Of a DNA stretch of 64,000 bases, positions 20,038 to 41,528 are shown piece by piece. Source of the stretch: Massalongia carnosa (taxonomy: Eukaryota). Under the pieces are notes generated by a model. The model was not told where the DNA came from. It saw only the letters and a list, made by a program, of their open reading frames with translations, and ran no database searches. Where the stretch lies: positions 2,418,001 to 2,482,000 of the forward strand of contig OZ287070.1 of NCBI GenBank assembly GCA_965645245.1. The letters are read 5' to 3'. Each line of letters begins with the position of its first letter. The first letter of the stretch is position 1. The translations under genes were made by a program, and so were the position numbers.

Positions 20038-21751
20038 CGAAGGATGACGCTGAAAGTCCTTGCTAACGCTAAATATGCAGCTAAAAAAGCCACTTTACAT
20101 GGGTATATTTGCATGGATAGATATTTATTACGGAGGTACATATCAATCAATCGAATAATCGCATGAAACTATTTAGAGTTACCACCTCCATCATCTTTAT
20201 CACTCACATTCATCGCTGTCAGTGCTTTTTCGTTTGAGATGAGCGCGATGATATCGAAAACGGCGATCTTCTTTATTATACGGTCGTACGACTCCGATCT
20301 CTCTACCTTCTCTATACTCGTTACCTCCGTCCAACAATATCACCTCGTCAACATGTCGCTTTATACGTTCAATCCAGGACTGAATTCTTTTCTGCCTCAA
20401 CTCCTCCGTCCAGCACTTTGTCCAGGCCTTTTCAGCCTCAATACGAGTCCGCGGAGCACCTAATCGAGTGGTTCTTCGCTTCATCCAGAACCAACAAGGC
20501 TCGATCATGTTCAGATCAGGAGAATTTCCAGGCCATAACAGACGCATGACGTTGAAATCCATAAAGATCAGATTTTCATGTTTGGATGCGTGACTGGGGG
20601 CCTTGTCTTCCTGTACGATAGTGTTTGGTCGATCTATCATACATTCTTTTGCAAACGGAAGAAGCTTAGGAATTAAGACGAGTTTTGATAACGATACCAG
20701 TCCACACCTCCCTTGCCATCTCGAACGACTTTACCGTGTGTTTTATCCCATTTCCAGATAGGTTTTCGACCTCCTGGATTACGTAGCTTCATTCGTCTCA
20801 TGCTGGTTTCTAACTCCCAATTCTCTTTAGCTTCTGATTCTAAAGTCTCATTGAGTTTATCTAACTCAATTTGAGCCTCTCTTTTCTCTTTTGCAGTCTC
20901 TGTTTTCCAGATATGAAAAGGTCCTTTCTTTTCGTACGAAAAACAGCCCCAAAACAAAAACTCGGAGCATCCTTTCCATCTACGTCGAATACACGTTTTA
21001 GCATACATTTCTTTCGAGGTACGCCACTAAGTCTTCTTCCACGTCTAGAACCCAATATAATGCTTGTTTCGTCAGTCCATATAACGTTCTTCCAATCATC
21101 AATAGTCCAGTGCTGATATCGCAAACAAAAATTACAGACGAGCCTCTATCATGATCGAATCTAGACCTGGCTTTTTCGTGCTTTTACAGGGGCGAAACCC
21201 ATTCTGTTTAAAGCGTACGAAGTATAGTAGTGGAGGAGAGTTTATGATTAAAGCCAATCATAGCTGATGATTTTTCTCTGCTATTTCGATCTTGCACTAC
21301 ATTATTCAACATAGCTTGCTCTACCTCCGGTGTAACCTTTTTGGGTCGTCCTGAACGAGGTGCATCTTCTATGTATTCTACTTTTAAAACACGAGATACA
21401 GTTGGATCATATCCACGCTGTCGTGCTTTGATTTTGAGAGCTGAAATCGATCTTGTGGAGACTCCAGTCACTTCTTGCACGATTTTCGCCGCAATTCCGT
21501 GTTCTACAAGCGCTAAAGCCTGTATTCTTTGTGCAATCGTGAGACTATTGCTCTGTGCATTGGGCATGATAATGATGATGAATAAAACCTTCTACTGAAT
21601 ATCAGATGTAGTAGTACTGTCTTTTGGACGAAGAGAACAGAAGCAATTCGAGATTTTCTAGACTATTTTAGTACTGTATTCCCCTTGTAAGCTAATAAAC
21701 ACTAATGCACGTCTCATGTACGCTAGCAAGGACTTTCAGCGTCATCCTTCG
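20038..21751 (-). mobile_element. Tc1/mariner-superfamily DNA transposon (DD34E), 1,714 bp
   Basis: Perfect 28-bp TIRs CGAAGGATGACGCTGAAAGTCCTTGCTA (20038-20065 and reverse complement 21724-21751). TA on both flanks (20036-37, 21752-53). Internal transposase. Confidence 0.95.
20200..21567 (-). pseudogene. Tc1-like DD34E transposase, ~455 aa when four 1-nt frameshifts are corrected
   Basis: HTH region with APRSGRPKK and catalytic WTDET / QEDKAPSH / WPGNSPDLNMIE (34 residues between D2 and E). Frameshifts at ~21210, ~21130, ~21030 and ~20685. Confidence 0.88.
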
Positions 21752-35143: not shown

Positions 35144-37751
35144 GGTTGTAGTGAGGTCAGGCTGAAGAGTAGCTGCTGACCGTTGATGAGGATCAGTATT
35201 TGAGTTGAAAATGATAAGAGGCCAATATATCTTAGATAAATTGAAGGGTAATATACAATAGATTTTGACGCGTCCTATTCTGGCCGGACAACTTCTATGT
35301 TCATTTTCTGCAGGAGCCACCTGTCGAGACTACAGGCTTCGACTCGTAGGAAGTCACTTGCATCCGGGAGACCAGCTTAAAAAAGTCACACGAAGCCCAA
35401 GTAATGCTAGATACAAGCATCTTTGCTTGCAATGATGAATAATTTAGTAGGTCGGCTACACAACGGCCAGGATTGGGTGCATCGAACGATTAACGTGTGT
35501 TTTGCCCAGTGAATTTTTCACTCTGCATGCAATGCAAGTCAGATATATTCCGAAGTACTGCAGCCATCCGCAGATATGCCTATCATATCGATCCTGTGAA
35601 GAAGTACTTTATGCAAGGGACCATGGACTGAATGAACACAACCCAGCACAAGGTAAAATTCTCTGGACAGTAATGTGAGGTAGAAATCTGCGCTTCCAAG
35701 CTTTGCTTTTGTTACTTTGCAAGGCTTGCAGCAGAAAAGCCACAAATTTCGAAATAGGAAATATCAATCGCCGAGGAACGTACCGCATCAATGGTGGCTC
35801 TCTGAATCCTCACTACTGCATATAGCAATACTCTGTTGCGATTTGCTAACAGTAATCAACGTTTGAGGCATTTGTTGTGGCCTCCAAGATGAGATTAAGG
35901 CTTATACATAACAGCTGAGGGTTGGGCAGACTAAGGCGCAAGCCTCAACCTAAGCAGGAGAGCTGCATACTCTCCTTGGTGCATCCAAGCACTTCATCAG
36001 TTCCAATCTTCCTTTATGGCTAGAACGACGAGCTTTGGTAAGTATTCGTACGAGAGGCGGTTATAATCAGCACTGCTCATAGAGTCCAGAAAACCATGAG
36101 ATGCTTAGGGAGCCGAAAACAGCTCGTGTCATTTTCGGGGATTGAAAATTGTATGATCATTCGAGTATCTAGCCACTTTTCCTTTGAACTCGGCAGCTAG
36201 GCATCGAATAGCCCTGGTATTGCTGATTTGCGTTTCAATGTATAAGCAGCAAAAACCCGTTCCTGGACTATCAACAACAACAAGAACCCAAGTTTTGTCA
36301 AACGCCATGATTGGGTTATGCCGGCGTTGTGGAGGCGTTCGTATTACTAGTTGAACACAGCATGGGAGAAGATGCTGCTCTGCTTAGAGTACCTTGTTTG
36401 ACGCTGGTTCACCACTTCGACGTTATTTCCCTACGCTGTTTCACGATCCCACATAATCGTTCCGAGCGCAGTCAGTCTAAGCGCGGAATGAATTATACAG
36501 TTAGCGTTGCATGAACAATCACCTTGCATTTTGATGCTATCGATATGGCACCAAGCTAATGCACATGATATAATGTGTCGATTGCGATGGTGCTTATATA
36601 TATTTTTGTCGTGTCAGATCGCGAGGTTAAAGCTTCGCAGTGGTTGAAGAAGAACATTGATGAAGTACTTTGTCCCGAGAAACTCCTGGTCTTTGACCTA
36701 TAGCATTGTATTAATTCTAAAGTCAGCAGAACTTTGAGGATTGACATACTTGCTCACTCAAAGAAACATCGATGTATTTCATTTCACCCGTGAGATGTAG
36801 GAAAGTCTGTTGAATACGAGATAGATAGGTGTTGTGTCTTGGTCACTTCGAGCTTGGTCCCTGACCTATCTTTTCCATGAGCTCGGTTAATTGGCACGGA
36901 GGATACTCGTGTCGTAGTTCATCTTGGTAACTGCATGGTATAATAATTTCAATCTAGCCATAAGTCATTGTGCCATCATGAGCTGCTTTCCGACAGCTTT
37001 CATCCGGATACTTTCCTAGTATCTATTCTGGCCTGGCACCAAGGAGAAGCAGCGAAGGTTTAAATACGACTATGAAAAGTTGAGGGACCATATCAGGGCG
37101 AGAATCCATGCATCTTGTAGTACTTTCCTAGCTATGATATCAAATAGAAATTGCAGGGAGGATACTGATAAAGCAGTATCTTGAAGACTGGCGAAATCGC
37201 AACATAGGATATAGTAAAAAGTTGAGGATGCTTGGGCTGATCAATTCATCCTGTTTTGTACTGGTTTCAATCTTCCTAGAGAAAGTATCATGATCATACA
37301 TATTGTAGAGTTTTTGTCCCAGTTGATCGACATGAGAAGAACAAACGATGTCGAGAGGCTAGACAAGGCATCTGAGACTGAAGACAAAACCGTCGAAAGA
37401 GTCTTCAACACACCCGACAGCCTTAGAATCAAGACAAACTTCCTAGCAATTTTGGCGAAATGTGTCGTGCTCGGAAACGACACAAGTACTCTACTACATA
37501 ACTCCCGCGACTCCCTTTTGCCCCAGCGCTAAGAGTGGCCGCTAAATTAGTTTCATTGGTTACTAATCATAAAATCAGCGATAATGATTATGATAACGAA
37601 AGGTGTTGAAATAGGTATAATAAAGGTATGTATCTAGGCAGCAATCTTTTCCTATTACTGGTCACCCCTTCTAAGCGAGGTGATCTTATCTTATCTTGGA
37701 CTAAGCCTAATGCGGCATCTACGGTTTCCGTAGATGATCTGTCCATCTAGG

Positions 37752-39079
37752 CACGCGGGGGACAAAAAAAAAACTACACCAAAATTTAACCGGGTTCAAC
37801 CCCCCACCAAAACACAAGCAATTTCCATACAATTTTGATGGGATAATCACCATTTCAACAACCAGTCATCCAATTCATTCAATCTATTCAATAACCAGTC
37901 ATTTTACCCTCACCATCCAAAACAGCTCTCAATCTATCTGGCATAGTAGACACCCGTTCATTGATAAATGCCTGGGAAACGTTCGCCCACCCCTCATAAA
38001 TTAGCCCCTTGGTCGTATCATCATCCCAATGAGGATATTTTTTTAAATATTGCTTCGGGGCCTGCCAGCAATTTTCTATGGGGGCCAAATCAGGTGAACA
38101 TGGACAGTTGAAATAGTGCTTCAGATCGTTGTTCTGCTTCCAAGTGCGTACAATGTTTGATTTGCCTGGTCCATGTCCAGAATCACCGTCTTCTTCTAAG
38201 ACGAAATCGTGTTTTGCTTCAATCCAGGGCTTCACAATAGGCTCCAATATAGAGTCGATATAGACTCGTTGACTCATCTTTCCATTGGAGTTTCCAGGAA
38301 CTCTGTAAAAGTAGATATCTGACTTGAAGTCATGACCTGCAGCAGCCCAACAGTGATGTCTCTTCTTGACGGCCTCGTCTGGTTCATCTGCTTCTTGAAT
38401 ACAATCATGACAATAACGTTCACCTAATCTTCGTATGATGCGTAATTTGCCCTGAGGTCCCCATCCAAAGTGCACTTCGTCACTAAATCGAACTTGTTTC
38501 CAGTCTTCTGCATTTGGATATCTAGAAAGCATAGCATCTGACCACTTCATACGAAGCTTTCTTGTCTTCTCGTTCACCCATCCCTTTCTGCACGCAATGC
38601 ATTTGTGATAATCCATGGTGCCCATGATTCGTTGAATGGTTTTGCCACTGCAGTCTAGGCCTACTTCGAAGCCCAATTGCTCCCATGTAAGAGCGCGCGC
38701 CTCCATACCTTCTTCTTCCAATAGCCGTTCCATTTCTCTAATCAATTTAGGCGTAACAATTTTGTGACGCCCACGAGCTTCAGAAACATCGGAATTATTA
38801 TGATGACGGCGTGATGAGGCTCCTTCACGCAGGTATGCATAGCCCCTCGTACGTTCCACATCAAATGTGCGAAAAACATCCTCTTTGTGATAAGAAATGC
38901 CTTGCTTTTCGCAAAATTCAACGGCTCCCTGAGTTTTAGCTTTGGTAGGAGTCTCGATATGTTTAGAATTCATAATAATGATAATTATCCCATCAAAATC
39001 GTATGTAAATTGCTTGTGTTTTGGTGGGGAGTTGAGCCCGGTTAAATTTTGGTGTAGTTTTTTTTTTGTCCCCCGCGTG
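37752..39079 (-). mobile_element. IS630/Tc1/mariner-superfamily DNA transposon (DD37E), 1,328 bp, with long TIRs
   Basis: TIRs 37752-37847 and 38984-39079 (96 bp, 4 mismatches, beginning CACGCGGGGGACAAAAAAAAAACTACACC). Flanked by CTAGG at 37747-37751 and 39080-39084. Intact transposase inside. Confidence 0.95.
37888..38973 (-). CDS. Intact Tc1-like transposase, 361 aa, D96D37E catalytic triad
   Basis: First ATG inside the element is at 38973 (MNSKHIETPTK). RGRHKIVT linker and HTH LTWEQLGFEVGLDCSGKTIQRIM. Catalytic VRFSDE, LEEDGDSGH and PCSPDLAPIENCW. Tc1-like C-terminus MPDRLRAVLDGEGKMTGY*. Confidence 0.93.
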   Translation of the reverse strand: MNSKHIETPTKAKTQGAVEFCEKQGISYHKEDVFRTFDVERTRGYAYLREGASSRRHHNNSDVSEARGRHKIVTPKLIREMERLLEEEGMEARALTWEQLGFEVGLDCSGKTIQRIMGTMDYHKCIACRKGWVNEKTRKLRMKWSDAMLSRYPNAEDWKQVRFSDEVHFGWGPQGKLRIIRRLGERYCHDCIQEADEPDEAVKKRHHCWAAAGHDFKSDIYFYRVPGNSNGKMSQRVYIDSILEPIVKPWIEAKHDFVLEEDGDSGHGPGKSNIVRTWKQNNDLKHYFNCPCSPDLAPIENCWQAPKQYLKKYPHWDDDTTKGLIYEGWANVSQAFINERVSTMPDRLRAVLDGEGKMTGY

Positions 39080-39566
39080 CTAGGGCAGCCGTAGGTGCTA
39101 TGTTCATCGTACTGATAGGTGTTCATTGTGCTGGTAGGAATTGGATATTCAACAAAAGGGATGTTAAAATTTCAAGAGCATATGTAGTTGAATCTGTAAC
39201 CACATGCTTTGATGATACTGAATGTTTACGAAGATTAAATGAAGATTTTTATCTTTTGATCTTTTAGTTTTAACGCTGGTGCAAAAGGGGGTGTGGCGCA
39301 AAAGGGGTTTGTAATCGCAATACGCTAAAGCGAACGACTATTATTTTCAAAGCTTCCGTGAAGCAACCACTCTTAACAGCATATATTTTCATGAATTGAT
39401 TCCTTACATCCTTTACTATTCAAAACAACCGCGATGCCTTTGTAGCCTATTGAATTTATTAACCCCTTTCCTGCATACTGTAAATAGAATTTATTCTAGT
39501 TACAGGCTTTTTTCACCTTCCATCCTTTTGGCAAGCTGTCGGCATCGCACGCCTGTTCAGTACAGG

Positions 39567-41528
39567 ATGGCGTGGTCTAAATCTACGAGGATTATGATAC
39601 TGCTGGGTATAGACTCTGCATTCTTTTTATTAGAGCTTTTTGTTGGTATGTGAAAATTTCTCCTGCCTCTTTCCACATACGGCTTTAATAACTAGTGTGT
39701 AGGGTATGCCGTTCATTCATTAGCGCTCGTTGCGGATTCCTTTCACATGGTATTTGATGTCGCTATTCTCATGGCTTCACAAATGGATTCTAATCGCCTT
39801 TATCATAGCTAAATGATGTGCTCTCGCTCTGCGTTGGTTTATGGGCCGTCAAGGTTGCGAATCAAAAGACAAACTCGATGTACACATATGGAGTAAGATG
39901 GCTCATTTTGCGGTACAATAATTCACTAAAATGGCTAATAACCCATACAGTGGCAACGAGCAGAAACACTTGGAGCACTCGTGAACGGGGTGTTTCTTGT
40001 GGCATTATGCTTGTCCATCTTCCTCGAGGCCATCTCGCGATTTGTTGAACCTCAATCGGTCTCCAACCCTCAACTAGTCCTAATTGTTGGCTGTTTTGGG
40101 CTCGTTTCCAATATTCTAGGTCTAGTTCTTTTCCATGAACACGGCCACCAGCATGGCAGCCACCAGGAGCAGTCTCATACAGCAATCGACAATGTCTCAA
40201 CTGCCGAGGAAGGTCGTAGCCAAGATACGACGACAAGGATGGATTTGCATACACAGATTGTGGCTGATGAAGGGGGGAACGTGGCAGATATACTACCGCA
40301 AACCACTATTGGAGGATGGTCAAAATCCGCCAGACTAAGTCGATATGCCAGTGAAAGCACATCGGAACAAGGGAAAGACCGACCAAGAGCATTCAACAAA
40401 CGCGACGAGGATGAGTCAACAGCAACAAACTCTACATCCCCTACCTCTGTGAGAAATTCCACCACTGCAATGGCCTGGCGCCATCATCGGCGTACTAGTG
40501 GGTCAAGATCTAGATTTGGAAGTGCAGATGGAATTCACATCCATCCTGCTAGTTTCAGGAATGAAATTATTGCAGCTAGCAGGCTAGAGGACATCAATTC
40601 CGCAACGGGCTCCGAGTCAGAAGCCGAACAGGCCGAACAGGAAGAAGAACCCATGGAGACTTCCCCATTGCTTTCCAAAGCCAAAAGCCATAGCTCCAAA
40701 AAATCTATAGATCAATCTACCAATGATAATGACAAGCTTAAGACACGCAACCGCCACAATTCATGGCACAAGGGCCACAATCATTCAAAGCCTAAAAAGG
40801 ACGGTTCGGGGGCTCACGGTCATGGTGACCTCAACATGCAAGGGATCTTTCTACACGTTCTGGGTGATGCCCTTGGGAATATTGGTGTGATAGGTTCTGC
40901 TCTGATTATATGGCTCACCGATTACTCCTGGCGGTTCTACGCTGATCCAGCCATCTCGTTGGTGATCACTGTTATCATTCTTGGTTCAGCACTGCCGCTC
41001 TGCAAAGCAGCTTCCCGAATCTTGCTTCAGGCGGTACCGCCAGGTATTAGCGTAGATGACATTAAAGAGGACATCGAAAAGCTCCCGGGCATTCTCAGCT
41101 GCCATCATTTGCACGTATGGCAGCTCAGTGATACCAAGCTTGTCGCCTCTCTACACATACAAGTCGAGTACGACTTCAAAGGGGAAGGTTCAGCACGGTA
41201 CATGCAACTTGCCCTGGCGGTTCGAAAGTGTTTACACGAATATGGCATTCACTCTTCCACCATTCAACCTGAGTTCTGCCTTGACAATACGCGCCGGCAG
41301 GTATCTAGACCAATGACTGACGACGAAGGTTCGGACACCAACCGACCTGAGGGTAGTAGACCGGGAACGAAACCGCCCAGCAAAACCGCAAGTCAGGCGG
41401 CGAGCGTGCGTAGCGAACCTGCAGCGTGCCTTCTGGAATGCGGTGATGAGTGCGATGGACGTGGACAATGCTGCACTCCGGGCGCGCCAGAAAGCGAGTC
41501 CCTCGACGAAGCTGGTCACTCTCATTAA
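39567..41528 (+). CDS. ZRC1: CDF-family vacuolar zinc transporter (Zrc1/Cot1-like)
   Basis: MAWSKSTRI...LELFVG|YAVHSLALVADSFHM|LNDVLSL...YTYG|WQRAETLGALVNGVFL. His-rich loop, LNMQGIFLHVLGDALGNIGV, CHHLHVWQL, HEYGIHSSTIQPEF and a Cys-rich tail. Confidence 0.94.

Follow-up and report, generated by a model that had tools for sequence, protein, structure and literature searches.

Introduction

Among the variants of the IS630-Tc1-mariner (ITm) transposons, Tc4 and Tc5 generate target-site duplications (TSDs) of the form TNA, and Zator generates TSDs of 3 bp. Transib/RAG elements carry CAC termini and a 5-bp, G+C-rich TSD, and in their RAG1-like core the second catalytic Asp is separated from the Glu by a large insertion domain. 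For Tc1/mariner elements, duplication of TA is given as a defining and diagnostic feature in the accessible parts of PMC8533490 and PMC10379824. In Mos1, the 2-bp spacing goes together with a target bend of 147 degrees and with flipped adenines that are held by W159, R186, F187, K190 and the V214 backbone (PMC5481204, accessible part). Here we analyze a transposon within a stretch of 64,000 nucleotides from Massalongia carnosa (GCA_965645245.1, contig OZ287070.1, positions 2,418,001 to 2,482,000 of the forward strand), which we refer to as the window; the host genome is termed G000. The element encodes a Tc1-type transposase and is flanked by a 5-bp TSD. We consider it highly probable from the genomic comparisons below that this TSD length is real and lineage-wide in Tc1-type fungal elements.

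Results

The autonomous Tc1-type DNA transposon lies on the minus strand at positions 37752-39079 and measures 1328 bp, with ends CACGCG...CGCGTG. The sequence at the element start (37752) is CACGCGGGGGAC, and that at the element end (39079) is GTCCCCCGCGTG. The junctions read ccat CTAGG on the left and CTAGG gcag on the right, exactly as first described, and place the two copies of the TSD at 37747-37751 and 39080-39084. An inverted-repeat search returned arms of 104 nt that are 94% complementary and include one flanking base each, giving terminal inverted repeats (TIRs) of ~103 bp at 37752-37854 (plus strand, downstream of the transposase gene) and 38977-39079 (minus strand, upstream of it). 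Between them lies an intact open reading frame (ORF) of 361 amino acids (37888-38973, minus strand), with catalytic residues D165 in FSDE, D262 in EEDGDSGH and E300 in SPDLAPIE, and with CxxC motifs at C125/C128 and C188/C191. The Pfam domain DDE_3 matched above its cut-off (32.6 bits, cut-off 28.6) and HTH_Tnp_Tc3_2 below its own (E 1.1e-5), while no further Pfam domain, RAG1/Transib included, was found in the transposase at E up to 0.1. This TIR-ORF-TIR layout of ~1.3 kb is that of the Tc1 branch of the ITm elements. A preliminary description of this DNA had called the transposase Tc1-like from its three catalytic motifs, and both the DDE_3 match and the Tc1/mariner fold presented below agree with that assignment. 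Its DD37E label fits the 37 residues that separate D262 from E300 in the window copy but is not diagnostic, as the spacing from the second Asp to the Glu ranges from DD36E to DD41E within the lineage.

The element splits a solo long terminal repeat (LTR; TGTTG...CAACA) at 37604-39154, which is ~218 bp long without the insert and is itself flanked by AAAGG, duplicated at 37599-37603 and 39155-39159. Empty paralogues of this LTR contained a single CTAGG in all nine cases inspected, one of them with an adjoining substitution, and searches with the flanks matched LTR paralogues with a 5-base overlap. Both copies of the TSD are supported by the junction reading and the empty paralogues. Joints 37746>39080 with 5 letters fitting both sides were present in three of four sequencing runs; they stem from empty paralogous LTRs and are uninformative on insertion at this locus in runs X1, X3 and X4. 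A contig of run X5 skips 37599-39154, also with 5 letters fitting both sides, such that LTR and element are both missing. This result indicated that the strains had already separated when LTR and element were inserted. A search of G000 for excision footprints, made for the hot LTR site alone, gave no matches. The host LTR deviates from its paralogues in the first 30 bases.

Around 40 near-identical copies of the family are present in G000. With the window copy as the reference for family comparisons, 29 copies differed from it by 1-27 substitutions (median 3), and 25 of the 29 by at most 5. Forty loci were fetched at first, and an exact, variable 5-bp TSD was found in 32 of the 33 that had both ends in view, the exception being L031. 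Copies split by nested insertions, when taken end to end, had an exact 5-bp TSD in all eight cases. Among own-family copies for which both ends were examined, the total is therefore 40 out of 41, and none had duplicated TA; L035 and L038, with only one end in view, are outside the 41. Several copies share insertion sites (L026/L027/L294, L004/L018, L013/L296 and L025/L298), so that independent events are somewhat fewer than copies. Of the 27 full-length protein matches at 97% or more, 26 had an intact reading frame without stops. To judge from its copies, the element has been active recently and is probably still active.

Sister families in G000, at 51-70% amino acid identity and all with CACGC ends, had an exact 5-bp TSD at 30 of 50 loci. 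Further sister-family pairs added 9 of 12, and a pattern written for the sister-family ends has 300 matches. Among these further pairs is L299 (G000:C3:1886680-1887020), a derivative of 262 bp and thus the size of a miniature inverted-repeat transposable element (MITE), which has CACGCG ends and whose 5-bp TSD is exact. When own and sister families were pooled (100 loci, ends called without TSD information), 61 of the 82 elements for which both ends were called showed an exact 5-bp repeat and another 5 a repeat with one mismatch. Exact repeats of other lengths were few among the 82, with 2 of 3 bp, 3 of 4 bp and 1 of 6 bp. As a chance control, left and right flanks were randomly re-paired 2000 times, which on average left 0.31 exact repeats and never more than 3, compared with the 61 observed. 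The pentamers were variable (53 different among 59 sites) with a G+C content of 64%. Automated end-calling was wrong at some loci (L145, L146, L162, L167, L183 and L305), and all counts are kept as the scripts gave them. Read by eye, L145, L146, L183, L199 and L219 have exact 5-bp TSDs too.

The preliminary description had offered three readings of the window site, and the copies separate them. CAC..GTG ends with a 5-bp TSD were borne out by 40 of 41 own-family copies and by nine of nine empty sites. The second reading, GCAC..GTGC ends around a 3-bp TSD TAG, was lost, with G before CAC plus C after GTG in only 5 of 31 copies. So was the third, a TA TSD with one extra G, for none of the 82 own and sister elements had TA on both sides. 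The variable 5-bp repeats that were to be looked for at the ends of other copies were found.

Two sister-family loci showed rearranged surroundings. L082 and L083 (G000:C12:908712-921591) are inverted copies ~10 kb apart whose TSDs are swapped, as is characteristic when the intervening segment has been inverted. The copy L121 (G000:C9:1003181-1005263) has flanks that are mutually inverted repeats, with arms of 185 bp including the TIR, and this suggests rearrangement by aberrant transposition or recombination.

More distant relatives were obtained from metagenomes at 38-68% amino acid identity. An end pair was called in 40 of 80 loci, 33 of them distinct, and among these 33 the repeat was exactly 5 bp in 16, 5 bp with one mismatch in 2, and TA in none; the element ends were CAC, CAA or CTC. 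The altered target-site stagger that had been suggested for a lineage of the Tc1 superfamily is seen in own, sister and metagenome relatives. Other DDE_3 elements of G000 served as an internal control. From 40 such loci fetched, 26 were examined for ends and 17 were callable, and all 17 pairs showed TA, 16 of them from CAGT-ended DD34E elements. L237, a CAC-ended element of G000, also has a TA TSD. Since TA duplications were found in 0 of 82 and 0 of 33 elements, the lineage is not a canonical Tc1 member; it is an ITm-derived lineage that is Tc1-like except in its target stagger.

A DD34E Tc1-like family of the same genome (L238/L261-L286, e.g. G000:C11:2260900-2265100) has CGAGG/CTAGG ends and CxxC motifs as in the 5-bp lineage. 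GTA precedes 29 of its 30 intact ends, which corresponds to a TA duplication in a near-strict G-TA-C site, told apart from a 4-bp GTAC duplication by one exception only. Ends of 5-bp elements abut termini of this family at L271 and L277. An IS630-like DD34E family (L221-L225, e.g. G000:C8:2267700-2271900) carries MDNAAIH and SPDFNPIE, and our script found no inverted repeat in it.

Empty sites were reconstructed for 72 clusters, and their profile gave the target consensus (TA)N-CCWGG-N(TA), in which TA lies one base outside the duplicated pentamer and mostly on one side only; with its alternative outer bases, the pentamer reads [C/G C W G G/C]. In symmetrised form, the profile shows T/A at -5/-4, C-rich positions -2/-1, an A/T centre, G-rich positions +1/+2 and T/A at +4/+5, with frequencies of 0.62 for T at +4, 0.60 for A at +5 and 0.49 for C at both -2 and -1. 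Of the 72 clusters, 48 had a flanking TA, 45 of them on exactly one side and 3 on both, against a background of 11.5% for a TA on either side or both. The two-sided arrangement is rarer than expected for independent sides (negative association, Fisher p 0.002), possibly since one good half-site is enough. G at +4 or C at -4 occurred in 0 of 72 clusters, compared with a background of 40%. The 16 metagenome sites follow this target pattern as well. Different families hit an identical repeat site in two cases, L021 and L089 in one, and L300 and the window copy, both at the same LTR site, in the other.

An AlphaFold2 model of the transposase had a mean predicted local distance difference test score (pLDDT) of 79.7. 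Its best Foldseek matches were Mos1, Sleeping Beauty and SETMAR (E 1e-11 to 4e-6). In structure comparison, Sleeping Beauty reached Z 20.9 with a root-mean-square deviation of 3.0 over 204 residues. The top 11 fold rows were all Sleeping Beauty, SETMAR or Mos1 (Z 18.1-20.9), and the next, retroviral integrases, had Z 9.8. RAG1/Transib structures were not among the fold matches listed, which does not imply their exclusion. A profile match to SB100X had E 1.3e-17, and the C-terminal helices align to Sleeping Beauty. The lineage differs from TA-type controls in a clade-specific loop, in which EEDGDSGH is combined with a Gly-rich insertion of at least 3 residues directly after the second catalytic Asp, whereas the controls have QDNAPIH or MDDGASYH at this position and no insertion. 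The lineage's DD36E to DD41E spacing results from this insertion. A basal lineage row, P0238, is also without the Gly-rich insertion. In addition, the hairpin after the clamp loop is ~3 residues longer in the lineage than in the controls, and identity to the TA-type families of G000 is 20-27%.

The lineage forms one side of a long branch in maximum-likelihood trees. A single branch splits 54 lineage rows from 17 other Tc1-like rows with a support of 100 in the Shimodaira-Hasegawa-like approximate likelihood ratio test (SH-aLRT), in a tree from which 12 representative rows, 2 duplicates and one long row of IS630 type were removed; an earlier tree gave an SH-aLRT of 99. To judge from its protein sequences, the lineage is Pezizomycotina-wide and probably belongs to the Tc1 branch of IS630-Tc1-mariner. 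Homologous proteins are common in public fungal annotations, for example in Pyrenophora (as 'HMG box protein'), Botrytis and Colletotrichum. The named homologues, which we take to fall in Dothideomycetes, Leotiomycetes, Sordariomycetes and Orbiliomycetes, were set by sequence, and their TSDs are not in the counts. They include Pyrenophora tritici-repentis EDU42948.1, Botrytis deweyae KAF7915856.1, Colletotrichum sublineola KDN61748.1 and Drechslerella dactyloides KAJ6260011.1. The lineage members P0062 and P0047, from Pyrenophora tritici-repentis and Rutstroemia, bear the label 'HMG box protein', which is likely a propagated mis-annotation.

Elsewhere in the window, a second, broken Tc1-like element lies at 20038-21751 (minus strand), with QEDKAPSH and SPDLNMIE in fragments and TIRs of ~31 bp whose first bases are CGAAGG; it has duplicated TA, at a G-TA-C site. 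A long CAGCAA/CAA repeat tract at 25-307 encodes a polyglutamine-rich stretch. The host LTR lies ~0.8 kb upstream of an ORF at 39942-41528, which by eye we take to resemble an exon of a cation-diffusion (zinc) transporter.

Discussion

In established Tc1/mariner chemistry the TSD is as long as the stretch that separates the two points of strand transfer, and a 5-bp TSD accordingly implies attack 5 bp apart. By analogy with that chemistry, a transposase dimer would carry out cut-and-paste excision and strand transfer, the two GTG-3' ends would be joined to the target strands with a spacing of 5 bp where 2 bp is usual, and host gap repair would then duplicate the 5 bases. The wider stagger may arise from remodelled target-binding loops, chiefly EEDGDSGH and the Gly-rich insertion after D262, with the longer hairpin after the clamp loop as a second candidate contributor. 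We infer that these loops would reshape the target channel, and the Mos1-type bend and adenine flip at a central TA may have been replaced by a looser reading of an 11-bp site.

The most far-reaching reading is an undescribed family-level ITm lineage in Pezizomycotina with a 5-bp stagger, a G+C-rich core, a TA in one half-site one base outside the duplication and the Gly-rich loop as cause, possibly with a Zn-site brace between linker and clamp loop. We give this full combination about an even chance. Several points weigh against the explanation of a 5-bp stagger and its proposed cause. Among sister-family loci, 20 of 50 lacked an exact 5-bp repeat (5 of these were one base off), as did 17 of 33 metagenome loci (2 of these one base off), and the misses in both sets are only partly explained. 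Explanations were found in the swapped TSDs of L082/L083, in the duplicates L092/L093/L096 with a damaged end, in tandem or nested copies and in miscalled ends. There are also odd sites: L300 and L091, the latter within a run of C, read as 4 bp, L167 reads as 7 bp, and L307 as 5 bp with an additional CA. They are either rare alternative staggers or sequence errors. The candidate loops have partly low or middling pLDDT, and residues 174-197 lie mostly below 50. Two other candidate determinants of the stagger were discarded as not diagnostic: TA-type L246/L252 likewise lack the K/R-aromatic pair that Morris et al. aligned to Mos1 R186/F187, and CxxC motifs also occur in the L238 family, which is of the TA type. 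The trees come from quick IQ-TREE searches on homologues and G000 families that were midpoint-rooted and run without impala, TRT, Tc1 or IS630 reference sequences. Finally, the evidence is wholly genomic.

The window site contains TAG and is readable in three ways, and TA stands somewhere inside 10 of 59 TSDs, so that one might suspect that the ends were misread and TA or 3 bp were duplicated, or that the assembly is faulty at one site. Such an account is refuted by the TSDs of the element's own family, by empty sites with one copy and by the 0 of 82 elements with TA; the pentamers are too variable for it, and the identical end-calling procedure returned TA in all 17 controls. We regard its probability as negligible. 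It is also very improbable, though less so, that the Tc1 ORF is cargo and that mobility is provided in trans by a different transposase with a 5-bp stagger (Transib/RAG-like or hAT5-like). The CAC...GTG ends and 5-bp TSD do resemble those of Transib. The ORF, however, fills the element and is kept intact among its full-length matches. TIRs and transposase diverge jointly across families, yet relatives with as little as 38% identity, from other samples and with ends CAC, CAA or CTC, retain the 5-bp TSD and the target logo. Transib is reported absent from fungi in the accessible part of PMC5751038, no search of G000 having been aimed at Transib or hAT transposases.

A more serious alternative accepts the 5-bp TSD and leaves the mechanism unchanged but holds that the lineage is already catalogued, among the fungal Mariner/DTT families of Repbase or Dfam or as a fungal branch of TRT. 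We give this somewhat less than an even chance. Such proteins are common in public annotations, TRT is reported from fungi (PMC10379824, accessible part), and hAT variants in TSD length such as hAT5 and hAT6 were published only in Repbase Reports, according to the reference list in the accessible part of PMC12730594, which makes a similar entry plausible. On the other hand, we found no account of a Tc1-type lineage with 5-bp TSDs in a literature search to which Repbase, Dfam and subscription journals did not belong. The accessible parts of PMC2836289, PMC11544213, PMC11887251, PMC5481204, PMC12730594, PMC3227409, PMC3441728, PMC5751038, PMC3105345, PMC3538342, PMC8533490, PMC10379824 and PMC7325037 contain none, those of PMC10652580 had no matches to the search terms, and the supplements of PMC4210507 were likewise silent as far as covered (11 of 18 were not). 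In the accessible parts of the fungal transposable element papers, TSDs are only TA, AT, TWY or 8 or 9 bp, or TSD data are not given. EDGDSGH and MDYHKC had no matches in the 6 readable supplements of PMC7325037, which do not include its FASTA files, and three accessions and one accession prefix looked for are missing from the tree in the accessible part of that paper. DGDSGH had no matches in the available supplement parts of PMC10379824 and PMC8533490, and the vertebrate TRT sequences have QDNAPSH at this point and carry their 3 extra residues at a later position (PMC10379824, supplement part). The earlier statement that such a lineage is not described in fungi therefore stands for the literature covered, and does not extend to Repbase, Dfam or the text of the TRT paper.

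If the 5-bp lineage is what we propose, nature would have produced a Tc1-type enzyme for which TA is not the insertion site. Fungal annotation pipelines will mis-trim or misclassify such TA-breaking elements and their MITEs. The lineage is also a natural experiment on how a DDE transpososome fixes the spacing of its two points of strand transfer, with intact 5-bp and TA enzymes of the same fold in one genome and candidate loops that are short enough to swap. A compact (361 amino acids), recently active Tc1-type enzyme with another target spectrum could extend the set of transposon tools.

Compared with known systems, the lineage stands closest to the Tc1 DD34E elements (Sleeping Beauty, the fungal impala-like elements and the CAGT-ended L241-L259 of G000). 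It is like them in its ~1.3 kb with a single ORF of ~360 amino acids, in HTH_Tnp_Tc3_2 plus DDE_3, in SPDLxPIE, in the closest solved fold and in ends starting with CA. They differ in having a TA TSD and QDNAPIH, whereas the lineage has a G+C-rich 5-bp TSD, EEDGDSGH with the Gly-rich insertion and a separate branch. TRT, L18 and Mosquito (MS) share the DD37E spacing with the window copy. In the available part of the PMC10379824 supplement, the TRT-Dr/Mz/Hb rows have QDNAPSH and extra residues placed otherwise than in the lineage, a comparison made without fungal TRT sequences, and L18 has DNCAIH and SPEF/SPEL; MS has a TA TSD and is invertebrate-only (PMC10379824, accessible part). As far as motif and TSD comparison can tell, the lineage is not TRT, L18 or Mosquito, fungal TRT sequences being outside the comparison; the TA TSD, animal hosts and family motifs by which L18 and Mosquito are recognised are not those of the lineage. 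Mos1 (5HOO) has the same catalytic fold (Z ~18), and its paired-end cut-and-paste chemistry is presumably shared, but the bend and adenine flip occur at the TA itself in Mos1 (PMC5481204, accessible part), while strand transfers in the lineage would lie 5 bp apart with the preferred TA outside.

The likeness to Transib/RAG noted in the preliminary description is confined to the CAC...GTG termini and the 5-bp TSD. Domains and fold are those of Tc1/mariner, the CAC-ended L237 has a TA TSD, and the large insertion domain is not in the lineage, with its 37-residue spacing in the window copy and no RAG1/Transib match in Pfam. The likeness is probably convergent. A lineage-wide departure in TSD is likewise known from the ITm variant Sailor, which duplicates TATA (PMC8533490, accessible part), and hAT5, hAT6 and hAT7 provide a precedent for a lineage-wide change of TSD in another superfamily (PMC12730594, accessible part). 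The target variants within ITm stay short and A/T-centred, whereas the TSD of this lineage is 5 bp long, variable and G+C-rich.

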